Shown here piece by piece: positions 9,384-62,056 of a stretch of 64,000 nucleotides of DNA. Origin of the DNA: Promethearchaeota archaeon Loki_b32 (lineage in GTDB: Archaea > Asgardarchaeota > Lokiarchaeia > Sigyniarchaeales > SOKP01). Every line of letters starts with the position of its first letter. The first letter of the stretch is position 1. Location: contig NJBH01000004.1 of assembly GCA_005223125.1 (NCBI GenBank), positions 1 to 64,000 of the forward strand, written 5' to 3'. The notes under the pieces were generated by a model that saw only the letters and a program-made list of their open reading frames with translations, made no database searches and was not told the origin of the DNA. The translations under genes were made by a program, and so were the position numbers.

Positions 9384-9884
9384 TTATTTTCTAATCTGTA
9401 CTTTAGGTTGAATTGAAGAAGCTCCGCCAAAATTAGTAATTACAGGGCAATGGGTAAATATTTTATCCATTAATTCATTAATTTTTTCTTCTGGAGCATC
9501 AGCTTTAATTCTGATAACAGGTTCTAATTTATCATAACCAGCTAATTTTGAGTCATCAATTCCAAAAATAGCTCCTAAATTGATATGACCACGCGAAAAA
9601 ACTTTCATTTCTTCAATTTTAATGTCCATAATTTTAGCCCAGAATCTTGTAACCGCAATAATACAAGCTCCAATAGAGGATAAGATAACTAATAATGGTG
9701 ATGGTCCTTCATTTGTTCCATCTAAACCAAGAGGTGCGTCAATTATTAATTCAAATGGTTTTGCTCCCATGGTACATTTAACTTGCATACCATCAGATAA
9801 CATTTCACATTCAACGTTAAAATTTTTCTCTCCAGCATTCCAGTCTGCCTTAATGGCATCATAAGTTTCTTTAAAACTTGGCAT
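9384..9884 (-). CDS. OsmC family protein
   Basis: DAP..LDG…GPSP…GAC and HCPV motifs. Confidence 0.88.
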   Translation of the reverse strand: MPSFKETYDAIKADWNAGEKNFNVECEMLSDGMQVKCTMGAKPFELIIDAPLGLDGTNEGPSPLLVILSSIGACIIAVTRFWAKIMDIKIEEMKVFSRGHINLGAIFGIDDSKLAGYDKLEPVIRIKADAPEEKINELMDKIFTHCPVITNFGGASSIQPKVQIRK

Positions 9885-9925
9885 TTATACTCTCCTATTT
9901 TGGTAAATTTTAATTCTTGCTTATT

Positions 9926-10321
9926 TTAATGAGCGTGAGCATGTTCTGAGTTACTAGCACAGCTAGCATTGTTTAAAGATGTTAATTGGCCGTCTAATAA
10001 CATTCTTACATTTTTTTCAATGCTTCCATTGATACCTTGAAATAAATTTATGTTAACTTGTTGAAAACCCATAAATGGACGCATACCAATACCAGTTAAA
10101 ATCATATCACTAACATTTCTTTGTTTCATGTTTAGAACAGGTTCCATACAACCTGAATGACCACTATTAGGTAATGCAAAAACTTGCTTGAATTTATTAC
10201 CATCATAAATTTCAATTCCAATGAAATAGTTACAATGTCCAAAATGAGGTGATATATTATCAGATATTTCAGGTCCATCAGAGGGAATTCCAATTATTCG
10301 ATTCATATGTCTTACACTCAT
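9926..10321 (-). CDS. NifB/NifX family protein
   Basis: IGIPS…HFGHCNYF…GIGMRP; HAHAH tail. Confidence 0.88.
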   Translation of the reverse strand: MSVRHMNRIIGIPSDGPEISDNISPHFGHCNYFIGIEIYDGNKFKQVFALPNSGHSGCMEPVLNMKQRNVSDMILTGIGMRPFMGFQQVNINLFQGINGSIEKNVRMLLDGQLTSLNNASCASNSEHAHAH

Positions 10322-10642: not shown

Positions 10643-11947
10643 TTAATGAGTTGCACAGGATATACAAGGGTCAAATGCCCTAATAATCATCTGAATTTTC
10701 TTTTTAACTAAATTTATATCTCCTGTTCTTTCAAATAATTCTTGAGCATATTTTGTAATCATATCGTTAATAAGTGAGAGATTAAACTCAGTAGCAATGA
10801 ATAGATTTATTCGATCAACGTAATTACTTTTATTAAGGTGATAATGATGTATTAAAACCCCTCTAGGGGCCTCAATAACACCTATTCCATCCAAGTTTTT
10901 TATTGAATTCAGAGAGGGAAGTTTTTCTCTTATATTTAAAGATGGATTATCTAAAATTTGTAATCCTTGATAAGATTCAATATACATTTCTAATAATCTT
11001 ATAAAATTAGTAAATAATATATTGTTTTTCCATGATTTATTAAAGTAGTCAAGATAAGTGGGAATTTCATCAATTCCATAATTCTCAACAATATTAAAGC
11101 GTGAAAAAGGGCCAACAATCACATTTTTTTCATTTTCGAAATAAAAATCAATTCCACGTAAATTAATCTCTTTTCCAAAATATGTAGAATAATTTTGTTT
11201 TTCAAATTCTATAAAGTTTTTATTGTTTTCTTTAAATCTTAAAGAACCAGAATATCGATCATAATTTCCATAATTAGTTAGAGCAAGAGAAATAAATTTT
11301 GGAAGATCAAATTCTTTTGGAGGAGTCTGATTTGCAAATAATTGAATAAATTTTTCTATAATCCATTCTAAAATAACTAAAGCTTTTTGAAAATATTTTC
11401 GAGCTAATGTAATACTTTTTCGAGAAGGAGAATAAATAACACCTCCAGGAACAAGTGAAATCAAATGAACAGATCTACCACCAAATAATTCATTTATTTC
11501 ATTTCCAACTTTAATTAAATCATATAAACTAGTTGTTAATTGAGGATAATATTTGATTAATTCATAAGGAGAAAAAGTCTTTTGGCTAAGATTAAAAATT
11601 GTTAAAAGATCTGGTAGAGTCTGGAAAAAAAAATTCATAGAATGAGATTTAATTAATTCAGCACTCATTAAAAGGCGTCTTAAAAGAATATTATGTTCTG
11701 AAACTTCGATATTATAAATATCTTCTATTGTTTTACAACTAGCGATTGTTTGAGAAGCATAACATAATCCGCATATTCGAGATATAATTTTTGGAATATC
11801 AAATAGATTTTTACCGATTAAGAAATTTTCAAATCCTCGATATATCTCAAATTCTAAATTTACTGATAAAACTTCATCATTCTGAAGTAAGATTCTTACT
11901 TCTCCGTGACCCTCAACACGTTTACAAACATCAACAACTTTTAACAA
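10643..11947 (-). CDS. mvhA: [NiFe]-hydrogenase large subunit, group 3 (MvhA-like), with no C-terminal extension
   Basis: RVEGHG, RICGLCYASQ (L1), EAPRG, DPCISCATH immediately followed by TAA. Confidence 0.9.
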   Translation of the reverse strand: MLKVVDVCKRVEGHGEVRILLQNDEVLSVNLEFEIYRGFENFLIGKNLFDIPKIISRICGLCYASQTIASCKTIEDIYNIEVSEHNILLRRLLMSAELIKSHSMNFFFQTLPDLLTIFNLSQKTFSPYELIKYYPQLTTSLYDLIKVGNEINELFGGRSVHLISLVPGGVIYSPSRKSITLARKYFQKALVILEWIIEKFIQLFANQTPPKEFDLPKFISLALTNYGNYDRYSGSLRFKENNKNFIEFEKQNYSTYFGKEINLRGIDFYFENEKNVIVGPFSRFNIVENYGIDEIPTYLDYFNKSWKNNILFTNFIRLLEMYIESYQGLQILDNPSLNIREKLPSLNSIKNLDGIGVIEAPRGVLIHHYHLNKSNYVDRINLFIATEFNLSLINDMITKYAQELFERTGDINLVKKKIQMIIRAFDPCISCATH

Positions 11948-11952
11948 TCTTT

Positions 11953-12711
11953 TTACCTTTTCATTTTTGGTTTTGAGAATCGATAAAAAATACCAGTATA
12001 ATCCTTTAATTCTTGAGATAATTCTATCAAGCTCAAAAAATTTATAACATTAGAAGTAAAATCTTTTGATACAGGACCCATACATCCCTCACAAGGAAGC
12101 CCCATTTTTATACATTTATGTTCACATCCATCACGAGTTATTGGTCCTAAACATAAAATACCTTTTTTTAAAAAACATTCAGAATTTTCTTCGTTTAGAC
12201 TAATTTCTTCTGGATTAGGATTGATTTTGGTGATATTTATTTGAAAATTAATTTCCATTTTTTCCCATATTGGACAATTGGCGCACATATTTTTTTCGGA
12301 TAAGGTTATATCTTTATTCTCAACCAACCTAATTACACTGTTTCCAAAAAGCTTAGAGGGCGGGGGACAGCCAGGAATAATACCATCAACTTCAATATAA
12401 TTAGAGAGTGGTTCTGCTATTTTTGAATTTGAAAGGCTAAGAATTCCTCCAAAACAAGCGCAGGTTCCTAAAGCAAATACTTTTTTTGCGTGTCTTCGAA
12501 CTTTTCTAAGGAGTATTATTTGTGTTTCTTCAGAAACACAGCCTTCTACTAATGCTATTTCACATTCTTTAATATCTTTTGCATCTGAAATAAATGGAAA
12601 ATAAATTATTCTTGTTCTTTCAAGAAATTGTGGAAAAATGTCTAAAGACATAAGAGTTGATATACACCCAGTACATGAAGTTAGAGAAATTAATATAAAT
12701 CTAGGCTTCAA
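11953..12711 (-). CDS. mvhG: [NiFe]-hydrogenase small subunit (MvhG-like); probable TTG start at 12711
   Basis: SCTGC, GTCACFGG, PGCPP, CLGPITRDGC…CEGCMGP; GGAGG RBS before TTG. Confidence 0.88.
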   Translation of the reverse strand: MKPRFILISLTSCTGCISTLMSLDIFPQFLERTRIIYFPFISDAKDIKECEIALVEGCVSEETQIILLRKVRRHAKKVFALGTCACFGGILSLSNSKIAEPLSNYIEVDGIIPGCPPPSKLFGNSVIRLVENKDITLSEKNMCANCPIWEKMEINFQINITKINPNPEEISLNEENSECFLKKGILCLGPITRDGCEHKCIKMGLPCEGCMGPVSKDFTSNVINFLSLIELSQELKDYTGIFYRFSKPKMKR

Positions 12712-15250
12712 ATTTAATTTCCTCCAATAGTTGATTATAGAATTTATTAGAAATTTCAGCAAATTTATTACCCTCAACAGCATTCAAATGTTCAAGAATT
12801 ATTCGATCTTTATATTTAGGTGATATAATATTCTTTAATAATCTGATTTTATTTTCTACTTTTTTAATTCCATCAATATATCGACAAGCATCTTGTCTAC
12901 AACCAATTATCATTACTCCGTCGAAACCGAGTTCAAATGATTTAATAATAAAGCTAGTGTCAATGCGCCCTGTACAAGGCACCCTGACAATAAAAATATT
13001 TGGATTATAAGAGATCTTCTTGAGTCCGGCATTATCAGCGGCAGCATATCCACAAGAGGCACAGCAGAAGGCAATAATTTTTGGATGTGTTCTGAATTTC
13101 GAAAAAATTTCAATTGTTGCTAGAATCTTTTCAGAAGTGTCTATGTTTAAATCTATTGCATTAGTAGGACAAACACTAGCACAAGTACCGCAACCCTTAC
13201 ATTTGAATTTATCTATACTAACTTTATCTGATTCTATTATAATAGCATTATAAGGACAAATCTTTAAGCACAGACCACATAAGCCACATCTGTTTTCATC
13301 AATCTCTATTCCTGTAAACTCTGCTATCAAATAATTCTTAGAAAGTAATGCAATGATTTTTAATGCAATATTATTAGTTGTTGATATTGTAGAATTATAA
13401 TCTAATGGGCCAAAGATTGTCCCAACTCCATAAATTCCAGAAGCTAATGTTTCTTCACTCATAAATCCATTGTCATCTAATGTAAAATCCATAAATTTTC
13501 GAAGATTTTTTAGATCTTTATTTGGGACATATTTTAGACTTAATACAATCAAATCACTTGGAAATTCAATATTATCAGCAATAATATAATTTTGATCTTT
13601 ATTAGATTCAATAGTAATTTTGTTGGCATATATAAATCTGGGATTAGTTGATCTTAACAAAATCTCATCCTTATCCTTTAATCTACTTAAATCATAAAAA
13701 ACATTGACTTCACAATCAAGATTTCTTATTTTAATATCCTCAATATATTTTTCTGCCAAATTTTCAGAGTAATCAGCAAGATATTTCGATGGGCCAACTT
13801 CTTGGATAATGGAAATCGTATTTATGGGTATTTTATCTGATAATCTTAAAAGCTTTCCTTCAGTTAAACCGTCAGAAGATAAAATCCGCTCAAATTCAGG
13901 TGAAGTTATTATATTTTTTTTGGGATTATAATGATAATCCTCTAAATCTCCGGAAAAATCGGATCCAATAGCAATAACTTTAGTACCAACCTTAATCTCA
14001 ATCCTTTCTTCTTTTTGAGTTAAATCTATTGCTTTATTCACGCACGCACGTTCACAAATTCTACAATTAAGGCAATTCTTTAAATCTTCTTCATCAATTA
14101 AAGGAATATAAGGATAGGAATGCATAAATGGAATATATATGATTTTTCGATTAATTAGACCAAATTCATATTGATTTGGTTTTTCTATACTACAAACTTC
14201 TATACATTGTTTACATCCTGTACATTTTTTCATATCGACATAACGAGGTTTTTTAACCATATTAATTGTAAAATTTCCTACTTCTCCTGATACATTTTCA
14301 ACTTCAGTATTAGTAAAAAAACTTATATTTTTTTCATTCGCTAACTCACTTATTAATTCTGAAATGAAACATATTGAACAATCACCCATATTATGGATTC
14401 TATGCCATCTGGCTACCTTACCTCCCAATGTTGGTGATTTATCAATGAGATATACTTTTATTCCAGCTCGCGCTAAATTTAAAGCAAGGGTTATACCTGC
14501 AATTCCCCCACCTAAAATTGCACAACTCTTTTCTACCTCAACTCTCTTCACTTTTACTTTTTTTTGAAGATTTACTCGTTCAACAGCGGCTTCAATTAAT
14601 AATTTAGTCTTTTCTAATGAAAGTGAAGGATCTATTTGATTCATTTTAAATTGATGTACCCAGCAACATTGTTCTCTAATGTTAGCTATTTCTATATTTG
14701 TACGATCTATAATATCCTCAAAAATTCGTTCAAAAAGAAGTTGGTGTGTTTTTGGAGAACAAGCTGCTATTACTATTTTATTCAAAAAATTGTCTTTAAC
14801 CCAATTACATATTTTTTCAAAATTCTTTTGTTGACAGAGATTTTCAAAAATCTTTACCGAAACTACTTTTCTTAACTTATTCATATAATTTCCAAGTGCA
14901 GTTATATCAATTACACTTGAAATTTCTGTATTACAATTACAAATAATTACTCCAATCCGGCTTATTTCACTTCCCTTATAGTCTAAATACTCATCAATAT
15001 CTTCTCCCGATAAAATTCTTTTGTTAAGATTAAGTATTTTAAGTACGCGTTTGCCTTCTTCTGTAAGAAAATACGATTTTTTGTCTTTCCTTATTAATGA
15101 GTCGATCTTTTTAAGATGAAAATTTAGTTGTCCAGTTGTTTCTAGACCAAGTTTTTCCATTAAATCAGTATAATGAAGATAACCCTCTCTTTCTAAAAGA
15201 AGTAAAATTTTTCTCCTAAATGGATGAGACAATATTGAATATATGTCCAT
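12701..15250 (-). CDS. Fusion protein: ArsR-like winged HTH + HdrA-like flavo-Fe-S + MvhD domain
   Basis: LSHPFRRKILLLL…TGQLNFHLKK…YFLTEEG wHTH; CNC/AACSP/NIREQC HdrA N-domain; GGGIAG; ferredoxin motifs; C-terminal AFCCASCGYAAAD…RVPCTGRID MvhD. Confidence 0.88.
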   Translation of the reverse strand: MDIYSILSHPFRRKILLLLEREGYLHYTDLMEKLGLETTGQLNFHLKKIDSLIRKDKKSYFLTEEGKRVLKILNLNKRILSGEDIDEYLDYKGSEISRIGVIICNCNTEISSVIDITALGNYMNKLRKVVSVKIFENLCQQKNFEKICNWVKDNFLNKIVIAACSPKTHQLLFERIFEDIIDRTNIEIANIREQCCWVHQFKMNQIDPSLSLEKTKLLIEAAVERVNLQKKVKVKRVEVEKSCAILGGGIAGITLALNLARAGIKVYLIDKSPTLGGKVARWHRIHNMGDCSICFISELISELANEKNISFFTNTEVENVSGEVGNFTINMVKKPRYVDMKKCTGCKQCIEVCSIEKPNQYEFGLINRKIIYIPFMHSYPYIPLIDEEDLKNCLNCRICERACVNKAIDLTQKEERIEIKVGTKVIAIGSDFSGDLEDYHYNPKKNIITSPEFERILSSDGLTEGKLLRLSDKIPINTISIIQEVGPSKYLADYSENLAEKYIEDIKIRNLDCEVNVFYDLSRLKDKDEILLRSTNPRFIYANKITIESNKDQNYIIADNIEFPSDLIVLSLKYVPNKDLKNLRKFMDFTLDDNGFMSEETLASGIYGVGTIFGPLDYNSTISTTNNIALKIIALLSKNYLIAEFTGIEIDENRCGLCGLCLKICPYNAIIIESDKVSIDKFKCKGCGTCASVCPTNAIDLNIDTSEKILATIEIFSKFRTHPKIIAFCCASCGYAAADNAGLKKISYNPNIFIVRVPCTGRIDTSFIIKSFELGFDGVMIIGCRQDACRYIDGIKKVENKIRLLKNIISPKYKDRIILEHLNAVEGNKFAEISNKFYNQLLEEIKFEA

Positions 15251-15312: not shown

Positions 15313-16458
15313 TTATTCTTCATTTACTACTGAAGTCATTGATGACGATTTCCATACTATCAATTTATTCTTCATATTTTTTTCTGTTCGTTTTATTTTT
15401 GATTGAGAGAATTGGGTAATTTTTTCCATCATTTCCTTTTTGTCATTTACATCCAATTTTAAACATTTAATTACACCTGCGTTTAGTGCTTTATTGACTA
15501 TATCTTTTCCTTTTTTTGTACGAGTGATAACAGTTGTAAATTTATCAGGGGAGCCTAACCCTCCAAAGGAAATATCTGCATAAATATTAGTAAAATCTTT
15601 GCAAACCGCGCAAGCTTGACGCACATAATCATTTAATCTCTTAAAAGGTATATGAATAGTACTATTATCTTTTAAATTAACAATTAAATCTTCCTTAATG
15701 TTTATTCTTTTAATATTTTTGAATTTTAGTTTAAAATCTTTTTCAAATTTCTCAACCTTTTTATTATCAAAAAAAAAATTCTCATAACAAAATAATCCTA
15801 AACAAAATTCTATATTCTCAGATGGAATGATACCTAAGTTTTGCATACATCTAATTGTGTAAATTTGACAAGGTGTTCCTATTAATGCCAATTTCTTAAA
15901 TTTGTACTGCTTTAATTTGGGTAATGAACTTGTATATGTATGAAATTTCTGTACAGTTTCTAATTGGGGAGATGTATCTAACTTGACACCTGAAGCGCTA
16001 ATTAAATCTTCTCTACTTTTAGCTATTATACCCTCTCTAGAGAAAGGTGATTTTGTTTTTGCAACAATTGCTCCATCAATCACTTTTTTATCTATTAAAT
16101 AATTAATTATTGAGTTTACAACCCCGCCGTCTGTACCAAAATTTAAGAATTCACTATCTATAGCTTGGCAAGAGTAAATTGCTTCTACAAACCCTAAAGG
16201 CATCGATAAAAAATCTGAAAAAGTATAAGATTTATTGAGATCCTCGTCTAAAACATGTGTTTGTGGACAAATGAAATAACAAATCCCACACTCAAGGCAT
16301 TTTTCCTTATTTAAATATTCTGGAGGAGAATTAGGTTTTTTAAATCCAATTACATCATTTTCTATTGAATTACAAAAACTTACACAACCACCACACTCTT
16401 GACAAATACCAGGTTCATGGACTTCTTCAATTAAATCCTTAAAAGTTTTTATACTCAT
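15313..16458 (-). CDS. FrhB/FdhB-family F420-binding flavoprotein with N-terminal 2x[4Fe-4S]
   Basis: CQECGGC, CLECGIC, DGGVV, GTPCQI, GLFCYENF, CAVCKDF…ADISFG. Confidence 0.88.
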   Translation of the reverse strand: MSIKTFKDLIEEVHEPGICQECGGCVSFCNSIENDVIGFKKPNSPPEYLNKEKCLECGICYFICPQTHVLDEDLNKSYTFSDFLSMPLGFVEAIYSCQAIDSEFLNFGTDGGVVNSIINYLIDKKVIDGAIVAKTKSPFSREGIIAKSREDLISASGVKLDTSPQLETVQKFHTYTSSLPKLKQYKFKKLALIGTPCQIYTIRCMQNLGIIPSENIEFCLGLFCYENFFFDNKKVEKFEKDFKLKFKNIKRINIKEDLIVNLKDNSTIHIPFKRLNDYVRQACAVCKDFTNIYADISFGGLGSPDKFTTVITRTKKGKDIVNKALNAGVIKCLKLDVNDKKEMMEKITQFSQSKIKRTEKNMKNKLIVWKSSSMTSVVNEE

Positions 16459-16532: not shown

Positions 16533-16550
16533 TGATAAATATAATTGTCA
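16533..16550. promoter_or_regulatory. Operator TGATAA-N6-TTGTCA
   Basis: Imperfect palindrome; same motif at 16702, 25886 and 25993. Confidence 0.6.
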
Positions 16551-16701
16551 AAATATATAAATATGATCCTTTTTGTATATTATGTGACTATAAGTAATAA
16601 TAAGAAATGATGGATAATTGCATCAAGTATTAGATAAATGATAGATATTATATTGGAGAATGATCATGGAAAGATCAGACTCGCTCATTAAATAAACAAA
16701 A

Positions 16702-16783
16702 TGATAAAAAATTTTGTCAAAATAACTATAATTTATCTTATCAGATTTTTTAAATTTCTCTTAGCTTATTATTTAATCGGAAA
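16702..16783 (+). promoter_or_regulatory. Operator TGATAA-N6-TTGTCA + TATA (TTTAAATT, 16749) promoter of Sec-hdrA
   Basis: Aligns without gaps to 25993-26073. Confidence 0.65.
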
Positions 16784-16898: not shown

Positions 16899-18935
16899 AT
16901 GTCTGAAAATCAGACCAATGTTAGGATTGGAGTATATATCTGTAGATGAGGAATTAATATTAGTGCTAGCATCGATTGTGATCTTATTAGAGATTATGTT
17001 GAGGCACTCCAAGATATTATTGTTGCTAGAGTAAATGATTTTACTTGTAGTGATCCGGGACAAAATATCATCAAAAACGATATTTTAGATTTAGATTTAA
17101 ATCGTGTAGTTGTTGCAGCTTGTACACCAAAAATTCATGAATCCACATACCGAACAGTTTTAACTGAAGCAGGATTAAACCCATATTACTTTCAGATGGT
17201 TAATCTTCGCGAGCATTGCTCATTCATTCACTCGGGTGATAAGAGAAGTACTACTGAAAAAGCTATAAGGTTAGTGCAAGCAGGGATAAATCGTGCGAGA
17301 CAATTAGAAATTATACCTCATAAAAAAATTTCAGTGGAAAAATCTGTATTAATTATTGGTGCTGGAATTGCAGGGATGAATGCTGCATTAGATTTAGCAA
17401 ATCAAGGAATAATTGTATATTTGGTCGAAATAGAAGCCACAATTGGTGGAAAAATGGCACAATTAGATCGAATTTATCCTACAGACGATTGTGCTATATG
17501 AGTTCTAGCACCTATTATGGTTAGTGCTTCAAAACACCCAAATATAACATTATTTACTTATAGTGATATTATTGGATTTAGTGGTATCCCTGGTAATTAT
17601 AATGTTAAAATATGTAAAAATCCCCGGTATATTGATGAAAAAAAGTGTACTGGTTGTGGATTATGTACGACAAAATGTCCAATAACAGTACCTAACGAAT
17701 TCAACAGATGTATTGGCGAACGGAACGCAATTTATATACCCTTTTCCCAAGCGGTACCTAAAATTGCGTTAATTGAAAAGAGTATCTGCATAGAATGTAA
17801 AAATTGTCAAAAAATTTGTCCAGCAGAGGCTATTGACTTTGAACAAGTCTCAGAATATGTTGATTTAAAAGTTGGTGCAGTAATTATCGCTACAGGATGG
17901 GATGAATATCCAATTATGAAAAATAACGAATATAAATATGGTATTTATCCTGATGTTATTACTCAAATAGAGTTAGAACGTATATTGAGTCCAGTTGGGC
18001 CAACAGGGGGTCACTTATATAGAATTTCTGATGGAAAACCCCCAAAAACATTAGCTATGATTCAATGTGTTGGTTCAAGATCCTTAAAAGGTAATCCCTA
18101 TTGCTCTGGAGTATGTTGTAATGTTGCACTTAAAAACGCTCAGTTGTTAAAACAAGAATATCCTGACATGGACATTGCTATTTTTTATATAGATATGCGA
18201 ACGTGGGATAAAGGAAATGAAGAATATTATAGAAAAGCGAGAGAAGCGGGTATAATGATGATTCGGGGAAAAGTTGGAGATATCCGAGTAGATCCTGATA
18301 CACTAAAAATAAAAGTTACAGCTGATTCAACTTTAACAAATGATTTCATAACAATGAATACCGATTTAGTTGTATTATCAACAGGCATGGTTCCTTCTAA
18401 AAATACAGCACAAATTGTTGAGACTTTAGGTTTAAGTAAAGATATAAATGGGTTTTTAACTGAAGTTCATGGGTGTCTAAAACCTCAAGAGACAAATAAT
18501 TTTGGCATATATATATGTGGCTGTGCTGCTGGACCTAAAAATATTCCTTATTCAGTATCGACAGCTTTAGCTGCAGCAAGTAAAGTATCTACTTTACTTT
18601 CTAAAGATACAATTACTCAAGAATTAATCATTGCTGAAGTAAATGAAACTCTATGTATTGGTTGCCATAGATGTGAAAAACTCTGCAATTATAAGGCAAT
18701 AAAAGTTAATGGAGAGAATATAGCTGAAGTAGACGACTTAAAATGTAAAGGTTGCGGAGTTTGTGTATCATCATGCCCCGCTCGAGCAATTGATCTTAAA
18801 TATTATAGAGATAAACAAATTATTGAAGAGATAAAAGGGATTTGTAGTACTGAACTTGAATATAAGGAAGAATATATTGAATCTATTGAACTTATTTGGA
18901 AAAAGATTGAAGCATTAGCTCCTCATCAAACATAA
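16899..18935 (+). CDS. hdrA: Heterodisulfide reductase subunit A, 678 aa, with two in-frame UGA (probable selenocysteines U17, U201)
   Basis: AGGTGG RBS, ATG 16899; one frame through TGA 16947 (IGVYICR-U-GINI, paralogues CHCG/CQCG) and TGA 17499 (PTDDCAI-U-VLAP, paralogues PTLDCSLCILAP); joins ORFs 17196 and 17517. Confidence 0.85.
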
Positions 18936-20772: not shown

Positions 20773-23700
20773 TTAAACAATTTCATAATCCATTGCATCT
20801 AAGCTTGGTAATAAATCAATCATTTTGTTAATTTGAAATTTACTAAAATGATTTTGATCAATAGCCCCAACTGAGCATTCAACAATGCAAGCTCCACAAC
20901 CTTTACAAACAGCATTAATTACACGAGCCTTTCTCACGGATATATTATATAAACCCATTTCTTTATAAATTTCAACCAATTCAATAGCGTTATAAGGGCA
21001 AATCTCAATACATTTACCGCATCCTATACATTTTTCTTCATTTATATAAGAAGTTATACATTCAGTTTCTATTTCCCCTTTAGCCATTATTATTGCCGCT
21101 CTTCCAGCAGCACCATAAGCTTGAGTGATAGTTTCACCTATCCATTTCGGCCAATGAGCTCCTCCACATAGGAAAATTCCTTCTGTTGCAAAGTCTATTG
21201 GCCTAAGTTTTGCATCAGCTTCTAAGAAAAAGCCATTTGTATTTGTTGATACTTTTAACAATTTTGCTAATTGTTCAGTATCATCAACAGGAACTTTAGG
21301 AGTAGCTAATATTAATAAATCAGTATTATATTCAATATTTATTTGAGCCCCAACATTATAATATACGATATGGAAATTATCATTTTCATCACAGATTTTG
21401 ATATCATCAATTGAACGATATCTTTCATATGTAACTTTTTTTCGAAGCCTTCGCCATAGATTTTCAGCATTTAAATCTGAGAATTGAAACTCTCTATATA
21501 AAATATGAATATGTGCATTATGGTTTATATTTAATAATTTTTCAATATTCTTTAATGCTACACCACAACAGATATTTGAGCAATAAGTTTTTATATTATC
21601 TCCCGTATTAAATTCGTTTCTTCTTTGATCTACGCATAGTATTATTGTAGCATCTTTAAATTCAGGAACATCTGCATCTTTCATCTCAGTTAATTCTGTT
21701 TGTGTGAGTAGACGTTTAGGATATCTTTCCGATAAATTTACCCACCTGCTTGTTTTTATTTGCTTAGTTCCCGTAGCCACTATTATTGTACCCACATTGA
21801 ATGTTTTATTTTTTGAATTATCATGAATATTCTTAACTTTAACTTGGTAATTTCCAACATAACCTTGAATATCATCTATAACTGAATTTAATAAAATATG
21901 AACATTGGATTTGTTTTTCAAATCTTTAATTTCCTTTAAAATTTCATTTTTCGTAATAGGTATATAATATAAATCAATAAATTCAAGTGCGACACCTCCA
22001 AGAAAAGATTTCTTATCTACAAGATAAATCTCAAATCCTTGATTTGCCAAATTATATGCAGCAGTTATCCCTGCTATTCCACCACCAATTATTAGAGTTG
22101 ACTTCTCAACTTTTACTTTAATGGTTTCTAATGGTTTTAAATTAATTACCTTTGCTAAATACATCCTTATTAAATCACATGCTTTTTTAGTAGCCTTTTT
22201 AGGTTCATTTTGATGAACCCAAGAATCTTGGTTTCTTATGTTTACTAGTTCAAATAAAAATGGATTTAATCCAGCTTCTCTTAGAGTATTTTTAAAAAGC
22301 TGTTCATGAGTTCGCGGGGTACAAGAAGCAACTATAAATCTATTAAGATTGTATTTTATGATTAGTTCTTTAATCCGTTCTTGGGAATCAGAACTACATG
22401 AATACATGTTTTCTTCAACATGGACAACATATGGCAATTTAGAAACATAATCTACTACTTCGGAAACATTAACAATACCTCCGATATTAATACCACACTG
22501 ACAAATTAAAATACCTACACGAGGTTCATCCTCCAGTTTTACTGGTATTTCTGGAGGATATTTCAATTTTTTTATATTTTGAAATCTAACATGATATAAT
22601 ATTTCGCTAATTTTAGCAGCACATGCAGAACCTTCAGCAACTGCCATTTGAATATCATTGGGTTTTCTAGAATAACCAGTTACGAATATATTCTTTTTTT
22701 CAAGTAAAATTATATCTGTTTCATGAATATAACCTAAATTGTTACAACCCACGTTAAGTTTTCTTAAAAGCTCATGATAAGAGGGAGGTGGAGATAATGC
22801 ACTAGCTAATATAGCCATATCCGCTTCAAAAGTTCCAACTTTTCCTTTATCAATATCTTCATAATATAATTTTAATTTTCCGTTATCTAAATTTTCTTTG
22901 ATATATGAAACATGACCATTCACATATTTAACATTATATTCATTCTTACTTTTTTCAATAAATTCATAAAAGTTCTTACCTTTAGCTCTGACTTCTGTAT
23001 TAAAAATATAACAGTCAATGCTTGGATCATGTTCTTTAACAACAATTGCTTCTTTAGCTGAATTCATACAACATATGGCAGAACAATATTTTTTACATTC
23101 AGGATGATGAACGTCTCGAGACCCAACACATTGTATAAAAGCAATTGAATGAGGATGTTTTTTATCATCTAATCTTATGATTTGACCACCAGTAGGTCCA
23201 TTTGCAGATAAAAGACGTTCAAATTGCATACTAGAAAAAACATTCGGGGAAGAGCCAGCAAAAGAATCATATACGTCTGGCATTTCTTGGATATATCCTG
23301 TAGCAATAACAATAGCCCCTACTTTTAAATCTATTTCTTCTGGTTTTTGTAAAAAATCTATTGCTTCTGGTTTACAAGCTTTAGCACAAAGTCCACATAT
23401 TCTATAATTTAAATATAAACATTTTGATTCTTCAATGAGATATATTGGGGGTACTGATGATGGAAAAGGCATATATATGGCGCCTCGAGTTTTTAAATGA
23501 GTATCAAATTCGCTAGGAATTCCTCTAACTGGACAAATCTCGCCACAATCTCCACATCCTTTACAGAGGTCTTCTTTTATATATCTTGGCTTTCTTATAA
23601 TTGTTATTGTGTAATCACCAGCAGATCCTCTAATATTTTTAACATTAGAATAAGTAAATAACTCAATATTTGGATTTCTATATATATCAACCATTTTTGG

Positions 23701-23886
23701 AGCTAAGATACATAAACTACAATCAAGGGTGGGATATATTTTGTCTAATTGAGCCATAGCACCCCCAATAGTCGGTTTAATTTCGACTAAATATACTTTA
23801 AAACCTAACTTAGTTAGGTCTAAGGATGCCTGTATCCCTGAGATTCCTCCTCCAATAACCAAAACACTACTCTGCAAATTTGGCAT
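20773..23886 (-). CDS. hdrA: Large HdrA-like protein with two FAD domains (1037 aa)
   Basis: GGGISG; PTLDCSLCILAP; IQCVGSR…YCSAICC; internal CQCG/ASCTP N-type domain; second GGGIAG; C-terminal ferredoxin. Confidence 0.9.
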   Translation of the reverse strand: MPNLQSSVLVIGGGISGIQASLDLTKLGFKVYLVEIKPTIGGAMAQLDKIYPTLDCSLCILAPKMVDIYRNPNIELFTYSNVKNIRGSAGDYTITIIRKPRYIKEDLCKGCGDCGEICPVRGIPSEFDTHLKTRGAIYMPFPSSVPPIYLIEESKCLYLNYRICGLCAKACKPEAIDFLQKPEEIDLKVGAIVIATGYIQEMPDVYDSFAGSSPNVFSSMQFERLLSANGPTGGQIIRLDDKKHPHSIAFIQCVGSRDVHHPECKKYCSAICCMNSAKEAIVVKEHDPSIDCYIFNTEVRAKGKNFYEFIEKSKNEYNVKYVNGHVSYIKENLDNGKLKLYYEDIDKGKVGTFEADMAILASALSPPPSYHELLRKLNVGCNNLGYIHETDIILLEKKNIFVTGYSRKPNDIQMAVAEGSACAAKISEILYHVRFQNIKKLKYPPEIPVKLEDEPRVGILICQCGINIGGIVNVSEVVDYVSKLPYVVHVEENMYSCSSDSQERIKELIIKYNLNRFIVASCTPRTHEQLFKNTLREAGLNPFLFELVNIRNQDSWVHQNEPKKATKKACDLIRMYLAKVINLKPLETIKVKVEKSTLIIGGGIAGITAAYNLANQGFEIYLVDKKSFLGGVALEFIDLYYIPITKNEILKEIKDLKNKSNVHILLNSVIDDIQGYVGNYQVKVKNIHDNSKNKTFNVGTIIVATGTKQIKTSRWVNLSERYPKRLLTQTELTEMKDADVPEFKDATIILCVDQRRNEFNTGDNIKTYCSNICCGVALKNIEKLLNINHNAHIHILYREFQFSDLNAENLWRRLRKKVTYERYRSIDDIKICDENDNFHIVYYNVGAQINIEYNTDLLILATPKVPVDDTEQLAKLLKVSTNTNGFFLEADAKLRPIDFATEGIFLCGGAHWPKWIGETITQAYGAAGRAAIIMAKGEIETECITSYINEEKCIGCGKCIEICPYNAIELVEIYKEMGLYNISVRKARVINAVCKGCGACIVECSVGAIDQNHFSKFQINKMIDLLPSLDAMDYEIV

Positions 23887-26151: not shown

Positions 26152-26802
26152 ATGAAAAGTGATGTATTTAAGATGGAAGTATTAGAATTAAAACCAATAA
26201 GAAACAAAACAGTAGTTATATATTTAATAGATAAAACTAGGATAAACTCTCAACTCAATGATATTGATATTTTAAAGGCGTTAGTAGATAAAAATAATAT
26301 AAATTTTATTACTATTGATATAAATAACGGTAATTTCAAAACTTTCAAAAACTCAAATCTTTCAAGGGTTCTAAATGCCTTAAACGTAGAATATTATTTA
26401 CTAGATATGCCTAAGTACGCATATGGGTATCTTTATGAAGAGATAACGAAGAAAGAAGAGCAAATTAATGACCTATTGGAGGAATACCGAATTATGGATG
26501 ATAAGGACTCTTTTAGAGGTTTAAATTTAAAATCTTGGATTGATGTGCTTAAAAAAGAAGTTTTTCAAGAGAAGAATATTTTAGAAATTAAAATAAGACC
26601 ACAATGGATTGTCAAAAAAATTTTAGATTTAATTAAAAAACATAAAAATGAAAAGGTTTCTCTTATTCATTTTACCAATGAAAGTACCCTTCCAGAAATA
26701 ACTAAGCAATTAAGAAATCTTCATATAGAAGCAATTGTTTATAATTTCAATAATATTTATAATATTCCATATTTAATTATAAAACAGGAGGAAAGTAATT
26801 AA
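26152..26802 (+). CDS. Hypothetical protein paralogous to the N-terminal domain of the downstream Mtd fusion
   Basis: Both share MEVLELKP; aligned blocks YYLLDMPKYAYGYL/YKMVDISENAENYL and KIRPQWIVKKIL/NIREAWMMMGIL. Confidence 0.75.
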   Translation: MKSDVFKMEVLELKPIRNKTVVIYLIDKTRINSQLNDIDILKALVDKNNINFITIDINNGNFKTFKNSNLSRVLNALNVEYYLLDMPKYAYGYLYEEITKKEEQINDLLEEYRIMDDKDSFRGLNLKSWIDVLKKEVFQEKNILEIKIRPQWIVKKILDLIKKHKNEKVSLIHFTNESTLPEITKQLRNLHIEAIVYNFNNIYNIPYLIIKQEESN

Positions 26803-28487
26803 TGGAAGTTTTAGAATTAAAACCCTTAAAGAAAAAAAGTTTAAAACTTATATTAATTGAAAGTGAATTTCCCATAAACTGGTGGTTTGAGACATCAGCA
26901 GAGAAAAAGCATGATTTAGTATGGAATTTACATTTAATTTCAAAGGAGTATCTCAATCTAATTGAACATTTGATTAAGAAATATAATCCTGATTTCGCTG
27001 TAGAAGAGAAAGGAAGCCGTTGGGAAGATGCAATAGCTCCTGACGATCCTCTAGAATCATTATTTAGGGAATTTAAAATTCCTTATAAAATGGTAGATAT
27101 TTCAGAAAACGCAGAAAATTATCTTTCCTCAAATTTGGAAGATTATAGAACTCTTATAAAGCAGTTGACAAAATCAATTAAAGATATTTGGGTGAATAAC
27201 GATAAAAAATTTCCAAAAGATGATTTTGAGTTTCAACGTATGTTTTTATGGAGAGAATACCTGCAACAAGAATACAACCTTCAAGAAGATGAAATAAGAC
27301 TTAATATTCGAGAAGCTTGGATGATGATGGGGATTCTAAAATTTGCAAAGATAATGGGAGAAAAAACACTAAAAGCATTTTTTATCTGTAATCCTAACCA
27401 TTTCAAAGGTATCACTCATCTGGCAGGAGATTTAGGCTTTGAAACTGAAGAAATAAAAATTAAACGGTTGGCAAAAGTTGTTAATAACCCTGGTTCTGAT
27501 TCAATTAAAACTATAATTGGAAAAAGCATACTTGAATTATCGCCGATTAAAGTGAAAAAAAAAGAATCATTAGAAAAAATATGTTATTTTTTTGATACTG
27601 ATGCTAATGCTTCTCCTTTCGATATAAATATGGCTTATGACGCAGGTTTTGATGTAGTTATACCTATTAGTAAGATGACTGCTGATCAAGTACCAAAGCT
27701 CGTACAAGATGCAATTTTTTCTCGGAAACCGAAAGCTCCTACAACATTCTTTATTGGTGGATCTAATGTTAAAGAAGGAGAAAAAATTGCTAAAAAAGTT
27801 ATAAAGTCGTTGGTACCCCCATTTGAATGCCCCGTGATTATAGATCCTCGGGGTTCACACACCACAGCTTCTTCTGTAGTTGCTAAAACTGTTGAAGTTG
27901 CTAAAGAACATGAATTATATGATTTAACAGGTAAAAAAGTAGTTATTTTAGGATCAGGTCCAGTTGGGAGAATTGCAGCTATAATCGCAGCAAAATTAAA
28001 TTGTAAAACGTATTTAATTGAAACCTGGGAAAGATCGAGTGAAGAATTTATAAAAAATCTAGCAAAAGAATTAATGGAAGAAGCTGGAGAAAATTCAACT
28101 GAAATTGTTGGTGTTTTTGCACCAGATGATGAAAAGAAATTAGAAATAATAAATAATGCAGATATAATATGGAGTTTGGCTGCCGCTGGTGTACAAATTT
28201 TATCAAAAGAATTAATGGATAAATTAAAAAACAAAATTGTAATAGACATAAATTTGGTTCCTCCTTATGGCATTGAAGGATTAAAGCCAAAAGATAATAA
28301 TAAAGAAATATACCCAACTATATTTGGAATAGGAGCATTAGCTTTAGGACGTTTAAAATCCAATATTGAAGCAAATATCCTTAAAGAAGCATCAACAACT
28401 AAAGGAAAAAAAGTATTTGATTACAATTATGCTTTTGAGCAAGCAAAGAAACTCCTTTTTGGAAATGAAATAAAATTGTCAACCTAA
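26802..28487 (+). CDS. NAD(P)-dependent methylene-H4MPT dehydrogenase (MtdA/MtdB family) with ~250-aa N-terminal extra domain
   Basis: FDTDANASPFDINMAYDAG, DAIFSR, IDPRGSHTTA, GSGPVG, DINLVPPYGIEG, GIGALALG. Confidence 0.85.
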   Translation: MEVLELKPLKKKSLKLILIESEFPINWWFETSAEKKHDLVWNLHLISKEYLNLIEHLIKKYNPDFAVEEKGSRWEDAIAPDDPLESLFREFKIPYKMVDISENAENYLSSNLEDYRTLIKQLTKSIKDIWVNNDKKFPKDDFEFQRMFLWREYLQQEYNLQEDEIRLNIREAWMMMGILKFAKIMGEKTLKAFFICNPNHFKGITHLAGDLGFETEEIKIKRLAKVVNNPGSDSIKTIIGKSILELSPIKVKKKESLEKICYFFDTDANASPFDINMAYDAGFDVVIPISKMTADQVPKLVQDAIFSRKPKAPTTFFIGGSNVKEGEKIAKKVIKSLVPPFECPVIIDPRGSHTTASSVVAKTVEVAKEHELYDLTGKKVVILGSGPVGRIAAIIAAKLNCKTYLIETWERSSEEFIKNLAKELMEEAGENSTEIVGVFAPDDEKKLEIINNADIIWSLAAAGVQILSKELMDKLKNKIVIDINLVPPYGIEGLKPKDNNKEIYPTIFGIGALALGRLKSNIEANILKEASTTKGKKVFDYNYAFEQAKKLLFGNEIKLST

Positions 28488-58954: not shown

Positions 58955-61900
58955 CTAATTCTTAACTTCCTCCTTTTCTAATAGGTAGGAATCAATCATT
59001 GTAGAAATTTGATCAAAATCATAATGTTTTACCATTATAGCTCCAACGGGGCATGTTGCAGCACACGTTCCACAGCCTTTACATACAGCAGCGTTGATAT
59101 TAGATTTTTTGACTTTAATACTTATATCCTCAAATTCTTTTATTATTTCTATGAGATCTATTGCTTTATAAGGACACACATCTTCACATTTACCACATCC
59201 AATGCATTTTGCTTCTGAAACCTCCGCTACTAATCCAGATGTAGTAATTTTATCTGCGCTTAGAAATCTACTTGCTCTACCAGCAGCACCGTTAGCTTGT
59301 GAAATTGAATCTTGAATATTCTTTGGCCATTGAGCACATCCGCATAAGAAAATTCCATCTGTAGCAAAATCTAAAGGTCTTAATTTAACATGTGCTTCTA
59401 AGAAGAAACCATTTTTATCTAATGGAACTTTGAGCATCATTGCTAATTCTTTTAAGTTATCTGCTGGAATCATAGGCGTGGAAAGTATTACTAGATCCGT
59501 CTCAAATTCAACATTATCTTTTAAATTAGTATCAAATACTTTTATCTGATATTTTTCAAGACTAACTTTTTTCTTTTTTACTTCTGGTAAAATTTCTAAA
59601 TCATATCTTAGAAAAATTGCGTCTTTTCTGCGTTCACGATAATATTCTTCGAATTCTTTTTTAGCCATTTGTAAATCTCTGTAAATTACTACAATTTCTA
59701 ATTCAGGCTTCAATTCTTTTAATACTCTAACATTTTTTATTGAATTCGCGCAACATATATTGGAGCAGTAAGTTATTCCTTCATTTTGTCTAGCATTTAC
59801 ACATAAAATTAATGTTATTCGATTAATCTGATCTAGCCAAGATTTATCCTTATTTTGCAATTTCTGTTCTAACTCCAATTGAGTAATTACATTCTTATTT
59901 TTATCATCATACTCAAAAAGACCTGATGGCTTAAATTCTTGGCCTCCAGTAGCAACTATTATTGTTCCAATTTTTACATCATGGATTTTGTTATTTGAAT
60001 CCTTTATCTCTACATCATAATTTCCAACATAACCTTTAGTATTTTTAATTTCACCATTTAGGAATACTTGAATATTGTTGTTTTTGTCTATTTTCTCTTT
60101 TAATTCACTTAATAATTCTAAGGCATTCTTATGAACTGGATACAAAACATTTAGAAATTTTAGGTTTCCACCTAACTCGCTTTCTTTTTCTACAATAAAA
60201 GTTTTAAATCCTTGATTAGCAATATTTAGCGCTGCGGTCATACCAGAAACGCCCCCACCAATAATTAATGCTGTATGTGTAATGTCAACTTTATCTTCCT
60301 TTTGTGGTTTTAATAATTTTGATTTAGCAACATGCATCCTAATTAAATCTATAGCTTTTTCTGTAGCTGCTTCTTTTTCTGCCATGTGAACCCAGGAACA
60401 TTGATCTCGAATATTTACAAGCTCAAAAAGATATTTATTCAGACCTCCTTCTTGACATGTTTCTTGAAATAATGATTCATGTGTTCTAGGTGTACAAGAT
60501 GCTACGATAAATCTATTTAAATCATATTCAGCAATTAATTCCTTAATTCTGATTTGAGAGTCAGATGAACATGAATATAAATTTGCTTCACAAACCACTA
60601 CATTTGGGAGGTTTTTAACATATTCTACAACTCCAGGGACATCTACATAGTTTCCTATATTAATTCCACAATGACAAACCATTACACCTATTCTTGGTTC
60701 ATCTGTAATTTTAATTTCTTTTTCCGGTACATCAAATACTTTCTCTTTCATTTGAGTATATTTGACGGAGTTTAATAAATCAGCAATTAGTGCTGCTACT
60801 CCACTAGCGTCTGCAACCGTCTCTGGGATATCCATTGGTCCTTGACAAAATCCACATAAGAAAACTCCATTTCTAGAAGACTTAAATTTATCAAAATACG
60901 ATTTTTCTTGGAAAAAATTATACTTATCTAACTCAATTCCTAAAGAGTTTCCTAATTCCTTTACTCCTTTTGACGGAACTAAGGGTGATGCTAAAACAAC
61001 CAAATTAGCACGAAAATCTTTAAATTCACCCGTCTTTAAATCTTCATAATGTATAAGTAAATCTTTAGTTTCGGGATCTTCTTTAATTGTACTTATTTTT
61101 GATTGAAAATATTTTACTCCATATTCTTGTTGCGCTCTTTGTGTGAATTCATAGAAATTTTTACCATACGCACGAATATCATGCCGAAAAACATAACATT
61201 CTGAATTATCCGAATGTTCTTGGGTTATTATTGCTTGTTTTGCCGTATAAGTGCAACAAACGCTGGAACAAAAAGGTACATTTTCATGAAAATCTCTTGA
61301 ACCTGCACATTGAACAAAAGCGATAACCTCAGGTTCTTTAGCATCGCTTAATCTCATGACATGCCCATCAAATGGTCCAGATGCACATAATATCCTTTCA
61401 TATTCAAGAGCACTTACAACATTTTCGTATCTATAACCCCATCTTGAAGATAAGTTTTCAGCAGGCATCTCAAAACCAGTTGCAACCACAACTGCTCCAA
61501 CTTTAATGTCAAATTCTTCAGGTTTCTGTTCAAAATCTATTGCATCAGCAGTACAAACTTTTTTACATACTTGACATACTCCCTTCTTTAAATATAAGCA
61601 CAATTCTGGATCAATTAAGTAGATAGGAGGTACTGCTTGAGGAAAAGGAATATAAACTGATTTTCTTTTACCAATATTCATTTCAAAGGGATTTGGTACC
61701 AATATTTTAGGGCATTTATTAGCACAATCTCCACATCCTTTACATTTTGTTTCATCAACATATCGAGGTTTCTTTAGAATTTTAGCAGTAAAATTACCAG
61801 GTTCACCATCAACTTGAAGAACTTCATGATAAGTCATTAATTCAATATTAGGATTCCGAAAGACTTCAACCATTTTAGGAGCTAAGATACATAAAGAACA

Positions 61901-62056
61901 ATCTAAGGTTGGAAATGTTTTATCCAATTGAGCCATTCTTCCTCCAATTGAAGGTGTTTTTTCTACTAAATAAACTTTAAAGCCTAATTCGGTGAGATCA
62001 AGAGAAATTTGAATTCCTGCTATACCTCCTCCAATTACCAGAACTGAACCTTCCAT
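58955..62056 (-). CDS. hdrA: Large HdrA-like protein with two FAD domains (1033 aa)
   Basis: Same architecture as 20773-23886; PTLDCSLCILAP, QCAGSR…CSSVCC, CHCG. Confidence 0.92.
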   Translation of the reverse strand: MEGSVLVIGGGIAGIQISLDLTELGFKVYLVEKTPSIGGRMAQLDKTFPTLDCSLCILAPKMVEVFRNPNIELMTYHEVLQVDGEPGNFTAKILKKPRYVDETKCKGCGDCANKCPKILVPNPFEMNIGKRKSVYIPFPQAVPPIYLIDPELCLYLKKGVCQVCKKVCTADAIDFEQKPEEFDIKVGAVVVATGFEMPAENLSSRWGYRYENVVSALEYERILCASGPFDGHVMRLSDAKEPEVIAFVQCAGSRDFHENVPFCSSVCCTYTAKQAIITQEHSDNSECYVFRHDIRAYGKNFYEFTQRAQQEYGVKYFQSKISTIKEDPETKDLLIHYEDLKTGEFKDFRANLVVLASPLVPSKGVKELGNSLGIELDKYNFFQEKSYFDKFKSSRNGVFLCGFCQGPMDIPETVADASGVAALIADLLNSVKYTQMKEKVFDVPEKEIKITDEPRIGVMVCHCGINIGNYVDVPGVVEYVKNLPNVVVCEANLYSCSSDSQIRIKELIAEYDLNRFIVASCTPRTHESLFQETCQEGGLNKYLFELVNIRDQCSWVHMAEKEAATEKAIDLIRMHVAKSKLLKPQKEDKVDITHTALIIGGGVSGMTAALNIANQGFKTFIVEKESELGGNLKFLNVLYPVHKNALELLSELKEKIDKNNNIQVFLNGEIKNTKGYVGNYDVEIKDSNNKIHDVKIGTIIVATGGQEFKPSGLFEYDDKNKNVITQLELEQKLQNKDKSWLDQINRITLILCVNARQNEGITYCSNICCANSIKNVRVLKELKPELEIVVIYRDLQMAKKEFEEYYRERRKDAIFLRYDLEILPEVKKKKVSLEKYQIKVFDTNLKDNVEFETDLVILSTPMIPADNLKELAMMLKVPLDKNGFFLEAHVKLRPLDFATDGIFLCGCAQWPKNIQDSISQANGAAGRASRFLSADKITTSGLVAEVSEAKCIGCGKCEDVCPYKAIDLIEIIKEFEDISIKVKKSNINAAVCKGCGTCAATCPVGAIMVKHYDFDQISTMIDSYLLEKEEVKN

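Follow-up and report, generated by a model that had tools for sequence, protein, structure and literature searches.

A winged-helix HdrA–MvhD fusion without cluster HA4 in a Lokiarchaeia hydrogenase operon: a candidate H2/redox sensor-regulator

In the MvhAGD–HdrABC complexes of methanogens, the high-potential electron travels from flavin adenine dinucleotide (FAD) to HdrC/HdrB by way of the HdrA cluster HA4 (PMC12350162, PMC13580544, PMC9012536), and the HdrA N-terminal domain together with MvhD forms a mobile arm whose oxidised and reduced states gate electron flow (PMC13518236, PMC12350162, PMC13580544). H2-sensing regulatory hydrogenases have two described hallmarks, a Gln in the L1 motif of the large subunit and a missing C-terminal extension of the same subunit (PMC5665086, PMC8159394). 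The locus described here lies in the window, the whole stretch of 64,000 nucleotides analysed from Promethearchaeota archaeon Loki_b32 (GCA_005223125.1, contig NJBH01000004.1, positions 1 to 64,000), which is AT-rich (about 30% G+C). Four genes on the minus strand encode, in order, a FrhB-like protein, a fusion of a winged helix-turn-helix (wHTH) domain with HdrA and MvhD, an MvhG-like protein, and an MvhA-like protein. The fusion gene (P0001; 12701..15250, minus strand) is an intact open reading frame (ORF) of 849 residues, and its HdrA part lacks HA4. It is proposed, with confidence that is about evenly balanced, that this operon encodes a hydrogenase-derived H2/redox sensor acting as its own transcription factor.

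Pfam and HMMER comparisons divide the fusion protein into a winged helix (residues 2–71), an HdrA body (95–715), and an MvhD/FlpD domain (725–841). The N-terminal wHTH (residues 1–80; 15011..15250, minus strand) matches Pfam DUF7347 at 41.9 bits against a cut-off of 27.6 and has the recognition helix TTGQLNFHLKK. Pfam also recovered FAD-binding Rossmann motifs, with GGGIAG at residues 247–252, and two 2x[4Fe-4S] ferredoxin domains. Residues 95–715 align to the solved HdrA chains 8rvu, 5odc, and 7bkb with E about 1e-104 (the reference chains being those of M. marburgensis, M. thermolithotrophicus, and M. hungatei), and the thioredoxin-reductase fold with the FAD-binding GxGxxG motif that characterises HdrA was found in the fusion. 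At the C terminus, the MvhD/FlpD domain (12728..13078, minus strand), with its conserved Cys, covers positions 1–119 of the 123 in the FlpD profile PF02662 (E 5.7e-34) and matches 5odc_D (E 1e-24). The AlphaFold2 model has a mean predicted local distance difference test score (pLDDT) of 87; its HdrA body superposes on 5odc_A and 8rvu_A with a template modelling (TM) score of 0.82–0.84, and the tether between wHTH and HdrA body (residues 82–94) is modelled at low confidence. Against the HdrA2 equivalog NF040770, still its best NCBIfam match, the fusion scored 570.7 bits, far below the cut-off of 1100.

The original prediction had claimed that the fusion is without Cys at the central HdrA iron–sulphur motif, and alignment to the solved HdrA chains bears this out. 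Opposite the canonical motif CxGxRD...CSxxCC, the fusion reads IIQEVGPS..KYLADYSENLAEKYI (IQEVGPS beginning at residue 482), with all four Cys substituted. The flanks on both sides align well, ISIIQ with VAFIH and AEKYI with CCMYI of methanogen HdrA. Between the inserted and C-terminal ferredoxin domains, methanogen HdrA has no other group of Cys; since the thioredoxin-reductase domain thus contains this one set alone, the lost motif can be assigned to the cluster of that domain, HA4. The former site (residues 478–505; 13736..13819, minus strand) corresponds to the beta-loop-helix of the second Rossmann half and is modelled as a strand (478–485) and a helix (494–509) with a pLDDT of about 83. 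None of 120 close homologues has four Cys within residues 474–505.

All other cofactor ligands are retained, as had also been predicted for the FAD motif, the N-terminal ligands, both ferredoxin domains, and MvhD. C104, C106, C139, and C164 of the HdrA N-terminal domain (residues 98–235; 14546..14959, minus strand) and the CxxC pair C291/C294 line up with Cys of methanogen HdrA and occur in 120 of 120 close homologues. The inserted and C-terminal ferredoxin domains contribute eight Cys each, and these 16 are found in 119–120 of the 120 (C687 in 119); GGGIAG and the MvhD residues C730, C733, C759, C784, and C789 are invariant. Absence of the motif is not a matter of chance, because only 1 of 56 single-unit HdrA cluster representatives outside the fusion family truly lacks it (P0246). 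Three other HdrA genes in the window keep a canonical motif, at about 18066 (plus strand), 23130 (minus strand), and 61309 (minus strand), in line with the prediction.

Some further observations concern the motif elsewhere. P0246 (630 residues) reads VHVPGGH... at the HA4 position. Widespread loss of HA4 among HdrA proteins was considered and rejected; P0216 and P0255, seemingly negative, hold variant motifs. Double-HdrA proteins lose the motif from one unit more often, 11 of 90 carrying a single motif. The regaining of an NAD(P) site at the old cluster position was likewise rejected, no glycine-rich motif being found there.

Phylogenetic trees were constructed with the HA4 columns left in the alignments, a posterior mean site frequency (PMSF) quick tree among them. 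The wHTH-fused proteins group into a single clade in two trees (Shimodaira–Hasegawa approximate likelihood ratio test, SH-aLRT, 100), within which the HA4-less proteins from families f21, f4, f5, and f1, the last being that of the window, form one nested clade (SH-aLRT 93–94). One state change suffices to explain the distribution of HA4, and the change is a loss, because the outgroups and the basal wHTH lineages keep the motif. Four Cys are retained by the distant wHTH fusions P0121–P0123 and P0126 and by the orthologues of f19, f31, and f28, at 36–52% identity; in the distant fusions the motif is compact (e.g. IIQCVGGTDKCSTYCC) and its GxR part is missing. The original prediction had raised the question whether the loss is conserved in all HTH-fused homologues. 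It is not, and fusions with the Cys motif, which had been named as contrary evidence, exist among the more distant homologues. The idea that the loss is tied to the wHTH fusion itself was rejected on the same grounds. As judged from the sequence trees, the wHTH fusion is older than the loss of HA4, which appears as a later step on one branch.

The loss might instead be the first step of pseudogenisation, an explanation that is considered vanishingly improbable. Ratios of nonsynonymous to synonymous substitution (dN/dS) were calculated over 36 orthologues by the Nei–Gojobori method; with dS near saturation (about 1), the values are relative and serve for ranking only. On this scale the wHTH, at 0.06, has the lowest ratio of the gene, followed by the tether, FAD, and ferredoxin domains (0.07–0.09) and the remaining HdrA body (0.11–0.17). 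Residues 474–505, the former HA4 site, are the least constrained segment of the protein, and their ratio of 0.33 is the one observation in favour of decay. Constraint has been lifted locally at the former cluster and nowhere else. Against decay stand the values of 0.06–0.17 elsewhere, the invariance of all other ligands, an 849-codon frame that is intact in more than 100 genomes at 53–96% identity, and the age of the loss, which was inherited by at least four of the six families sampled on the tree. Of 400 Asgard genomes sampled, roughly 120 encode a full-length fusion orthologue, and the fusion family comprises 120 clusters at 67–96% identity, nearly all of 845–855 residues. Relaxed selection or pseudogenisation, which the original prediction had itself held up as the counter-case, is excluded by the low dN/dS outside residues 474–505 and by the intact frames.

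Immediately downstream of the fusion gene lie the two hydrogenase subunits, both on the minus strand and both with their metal ligands retained. The MvhG-like small subunit (11953..12711) likely starts at codon 25 of a 276-residue ORF, overlapping the end of the fusion gene, and has every Cys conserved in the segments aligned to 5odc_E. The MvhA-like [NiFe] large subunit (10643..11947) is closest to group 3 enzymes (7t2r, 5odc_F, 5xf9). Its L1 motif reads RICGLCYASQ, against RICGICPVSH in 7t2r, so that Gln stands in place of His, and the protein stops at DPCISCATH, where the usual cleavable C-terminal extension is missing. MvhA orthologues in f21, f4, f28, f31, and f19 carry 6–13 extra C-terminal residues. 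When the three characters are read together across families, f19, f31, and f28 keep HA4, the L1 His, and the extension (6–13 residues); f21 has lost HA4 and keeps the His and the extension; f4 has lost HA4, has the L1 Gln, and keeps the extension; f5 has lost HA4 and the extension, its L1 being unread because of masked bases; and f1 has lost HA4, has the Gln, and lacks the extension. On the tree these states fall into an ordered series in which the loss of HA4 would have come first, the change of MvhA His to Gln second, and the loss of the extension last.

The conserved core in 20 orthologous loci is the fusion gene followed by mvhG and mvhA. No CCG-domain (HdrB-like) gene was found in the operon or beside the core in these 20 loci, whether HA4 was kept or not, and the operon contains no kinase gene. 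The fusion has no HdrB/HdrC partner in cis; HdrBC-like genes, whose products might associate with it in trans, are located elsewhere in the genome. The first gene of the operon (15313..16458, minus strand) encodes the FrhB-like flavo-iron–sulphur protein, which begins with a 2x[4Fe-4S] domain. Only some members of the window's genus have this gene, placed after the conserved promoter and ahead of the fusion gene, and the protein was rejected as a core subunit on account of this distribution. Among solved structures its best relatives are 8RJA_E and 8RIU_B, both of which carry the annotation coenzyme F420 hydrogenase/dehydrogenase beta subunit.

Taken at the level of ligand conservation, the path from NiFe through MvhG and MvhD to FAD is unbroken, and the low-potential side, made up of the N-terminal cluster and the inserted ferredoxin domain, is likewise intact. 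The claim that one electron route is cut while input and flavin are kept is thus upheld: HA4 is gone, and MvhD, MvhG, MvhA, the flavin site, and the ferredoxin-side clusters are retained. With the HdrBC-directed exit gone and no hdrBC in the operon, the flavin would lose canonical electron bifurcation, because HA4 is the only wired high-potential exit towards HdrBC. Bifurcation could nevertheless persist if HA4 were dispensable and its branch had been replaced, with an acceptor either binding directly near the flavin or CxxC pair or docked through another subunit, such as the FrhB-like protein or, in trans, one resembling HdrBC. The invariance of C291/C294 beside the flavin is compatible with such rewiring, as are the roughly 20 CCG-domain proteins of this genome, which could act in trans, and the variable retention of HdrA clusters among paralogues of anaerobic methanotrophic archaea (PMC9012536). 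It is nevertheless an unlikely account: no extra subunit is conserved with the HA4-less clade, the FrhB-like protein being confined to part of one genus; the former cluster site has no nucleotide-binding glycine motif; and that segment is the least constrained of the protein, the opposite of what a new active site would show.

Indirect evidence for an output on DNA comes from the wHTH and the promoter. Modelled in isolation, the wHTH adopts an H-H-H-wing-H fold with a pLDDT of about 95, and its nearest folds are DNA-binding regulators (YodB, NolR, QsrR, and ArsR/MarR types). The recognition helix is near-invariant across families as TGxLNxHLKK. An operator-like palindrome, TGACAAttatatTTATCA in minus-strand reading (16533..16550), lies 92 nucleotides upstream of the first ATG of the operon and directly downstream of a TATA-like element, TTTATATA (16554–16561), and a second copy is found in the same divergent intergenic region (16702..16719). 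The dyad TGAYAA-N6-TTRTCA has 7 matches in the 4.13-Mb genome (4.8 expected), of which 2 fall in this 460-bp spacer; of the remaining five, 4 are inside ORFs and 1 is intergenic (C37:175035), and these five look like chance matches. The broader pattern TGACAA-N(0-32)-TTGTCA showed no genome-wide enrichment (8 found, about 6 expected), and only the N6 dyad at the locus stands out. In almost all orthologue promoters of the same genus the dyad keeps a fixed position, -92 where the FrhB-like gene leads the operon and about -125 where the fusion gene does. The operon promoters of f21, f19, and genus g2 carry it too, and that of f31 does so with one mismatch. The wHTH may bind specifically to this conserved dyad at its own promoter.

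In several families the dyad also accompanies a neighbouring gene pair, which in the window lies on the plus strand at 26152–28487 and encodes a protein of about 220 residues and one of about 560 residues with Mpt_N (methylene-tetrahydromethanopterin dehydrogenase N-terminal) and Rossmann domains. This Mpt_N pair often adjoins the fusion operon (loci L039, L043–L048, L051, and L058), and extra copies of the dyad are found upstream of the neighbouring pair in f31, f19, f21, and g2. In the window the pair lies at a distance of 11 kb from the operon, and its sites are all imperfect. Among five related genomes without the fusion, the Mpt_N protein is missing in 4, and the fifth has it without the dyad.

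These findings can be assembled into a mechanism for the proposed sensor-regulator. The flavin would equilibrate with H2 through MvhAG and MvhD and, by way of the low-potential branch that has been kept, possibly also with ferredoxin. The wHTH would hang from the swinging arm by its tether of about 13 residues, and a redox-driven swing within an HdrA dimer would shift the presentation of the two wHTH domains to the dyad TGAYAA-N6-TTRTCA; presentation to the operator would change with redox because the wHTH is tethered to an arm that itself swings with redox. With the dyad just downstream of the TATA box, the operon would be repressed or released, and the neighbouring Mtd-like (Mpt_N) operon would probably be controlled as well. 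The loss of HA4, the change of the MvhA L1 His to Gln, and the loss of the extension would together represent a stepwise move in which an enzyme that also regulates became a dedicated sensor. Three independent features favour a sensor: those that MvhA shares with regulatory hydrogenases, the extreme conservation of the wHTH, and the conserved operator. They strengthen the original prediction of a sensor rather than a bifurcating catalyst, while leaving a non-bifurcating catalytic role a sizeable probability.

Such a role is the chief competing explanation and has a substantial, though smaller than even, chance of being correct. The complex would then be a working, non-bifurcating hydrogenase that also regulates itself in the manner of PutA, the wHTH tuning operon expression to the redox state of the enzyme. 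Electrons would run linearly between H2 and ferredoxin, from NiFe through MvhG, MvhD, FAD, and the N-terminal cluster to the inserted ferredoxin domain, or would pass to the FrhB-like subunit. All clusters of the linear path are invariant, every enzyme domain is under strong purifying selection, a complete hydrogenase was co-encoded at all 20 orthologous loci, and a FrhB-like redox module has been added within the genus. The ancestral wHTH forms, with HA4, His, and extension, look fully catalytic, and Asgard archaea are thought to discharge reduced ferredoxin as H2 (PMC11216029). On the other side, the MvhA Gln and missing extension are typical of low-turnover sensors (PMC5665086, PMC8159394), a further group-3-type hydrogenase with HdrCB is present in the genome and additional [NiFe] large subunits in 5 of 5 other fusion genomes, and the HdrA scaffold is elaborate for a wire serving a simple H2:ferredoxin reaction.

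Several points weigh against the sensor-regulator. Both DNA binding and redox switching are predictions from sequence. Ten cofactor sites are fully kept and strongly conserved, which exceeds a minimal sensor and fits a working enzyme, and the frhB-like gene in the genus suggests electron exchange with a further substrate. A wHTH needs no loss of catalysis, because wHTH fusions with intact HA4, His, and C-terminal extension exist. The Gln has been reported to be dispensable for H2 sensing in the Ralstonia regulatory hydrogenase (PMC5665086). The same-genus promoters are orthologous and not independent, so that their counts overstate independence; cross-family recurrence of the dyad and its rarity are the stronger arguments for an operator.

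A wider evolutionary scenario can be put forward only tentatively, being judged more doubtful than not: Lokiarchaeia-type Asgards may have turned a bifurcating Mvh–HdrA module stepwise into a self-contained H2 sensor and transcription factor, with the arm reused as an allosteric lever for moving the DNA-binding domains, in control of its own operon and of an Mtd-like step of the Wood–Ljungdahl pathway. The steps would be the wHTH fusion, the loss of HA4, the sensor-type Gln at the NiFe site, and the loss of the maturation extension.

The wHTH-linked complex is a paralogue maintained beside other [NiFe] hydrogenase genes. The same genome carries, on another contig, an MvhG–MvhA–HdrC–HdrB cluster, as well as a 797-residue HdrA–MvhD protein without wHTH and with the HA4 motif intact. 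Its HdrA paralogues number about a dozen and its CCG proteins about 20. Five other fusion-carrying genomes each have at least one further [NiFe] large subunit, and the possibility that the HTH-linked hydrogenase is the sole hydrogenase in lineages that keep HA4 was rejected on this basis (5 of 5 genomes tested). In that cluster, on contig C41 (G000, L059:5433-9752), the gene order is MvhG-like (437 residues), MvhA (434 residues), HdrC-like, and HdrB-like; the MvhA ORF stops before DPCxxC, and the 290-bp gap that follows might encode a VhuU-like selenopeptide.

Other features of the window and genome were noted. Divergent from the operon, a probable selenocysteine-containing HdrA is encoded at 16920–18935 (plus strand), in a 678-codon frame running through two in-frame TGA codons; it has 35% identity to P0001 and keeps HA4 in its canonical form (CVGSRSLKGNPYCSGVCC). 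Two proteins of about 1035 residues, at 20773–23886 and 58955–62056 on the minus strand, consist of double HdrA units, and each is encoded next to a CCG-domain gene. The former has the canonical HA4 motif in its N-terminal unit only, and the C-terminal unit of the latter has the variant motif CVNARQNEGITYCSNICC. NifX-like (Nitro_FeMo-Co) and OsmC-like genes follow mvhA on the same strand (9384–10321, minus strand), an adjacency unconserved in other genomes. On contig C3 of the same assembly (G000, L061:1794-3785, plus strand), a DUF7347 winged helix is found at the N terminus of a 663-residue NrdD-like protein (glycyl-radical/anaerobic ribonucleotide reductase family), and this genome may contain a series of wHTH–enzyme fusions.

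If the sensor-regulator is real, it would be a candidate for H2 perception in Asgard archaea, one that reads H2/redox and addresses DNA directly, with no kinase in between. The exchange of H2 has a central place in Asgard syntrophy and in hydrogen-based models of eukaryote origin. Related genomes with and without HA4 offer natural "before" and "after" forms, which bear on the share of the HA4 branch in flavin-based bifurcation and on the re-use of a bifurcating scaffold for signalling. The individual parts are already known, namely Mvh–Hdr, HdrA2-type fusions, ArsR-like wHTH domains, and the concept of a regulatory hydrogenase, and full-text searches of the literature found no publication on a wHTH–HdrA fusion or on DUF7347. 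What is new is the identification of the lost cluster as HA4, the mapping of its loss to a single branch, the profile of selection, and the order of the sensor-like changes in MvhA.

When set beside known systems, the fusion lacks two of the defining properties of HdrA, namely HA4 and an HdrBC partner encoded in cis. With MvhAGD–HdrABC of methanogens (PDB 5ODC, 8RVU, 7BKB, 9SW2) it shares homologous MvhA, MvhG, MvhD, and HdrA, the HdrA fold, the FAD site, the N-terminal cluster, the CxxC pair, and the two ferredoxin domains. It differs in that MvhD is fused to HdrA, a wHTH is present at the N terminus, and HA4 is absent; moreover, the window operon is without hdrBC, and its MvhA has the L1 Gln and no C-terminal extension. 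HdrA2-type fusions (HdrA2 of Methanosarcina acetivorans; NF040770) have the same HdrA–MvhD architecture, but HdrA2 keeps HA4, partners with HdrB2C2, and has no wHTH.

The window complex resembles regulatory hydrogenases in two features and is not one by descent or output. Like HoxBC (group 2b) of Ralstonia/Cupriavidus, it has the L1 Gln and no large-subunit C-terminal extension (PMC5665086, PMC8159394), and both are paralogues maintained beside energy-converting hydrogenases. Descent differs, however, the MvhA of the window being closest to group 3, and whereas output in Ralstonia passes through the histidine kinase HoxJ, that of the window complex would run through the DNA-binding domain fused to its HdrA–MvhD subunit. 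ArsR/SmtB, HxlR (YodB, QsrR), and MarR regulators share the wHTH fold with a C-terminal helix (TM score about 0.7) and a palindromic operator, and weak sequence similarity was found to the ArsR-like 1Y0U of A. fulgidus and to MntR. These regulators work as small, free-standing dimers with Cys or metal sensing sites of their own, whereas the sensor here would be an entire hydrogenase–flavoprotein complex. PutA of E. coli and Salmonella is a flavoenzyme with an N-terminal DNA-binding domain that represses its own operon, the switch being controlled by the redox state of the flavin. In contrast to the window fusion, PutA combines a ribbon-helix-helix domain with proline dehydrogenase, of unrelated fold and chemistry, and stays a full enzyme.

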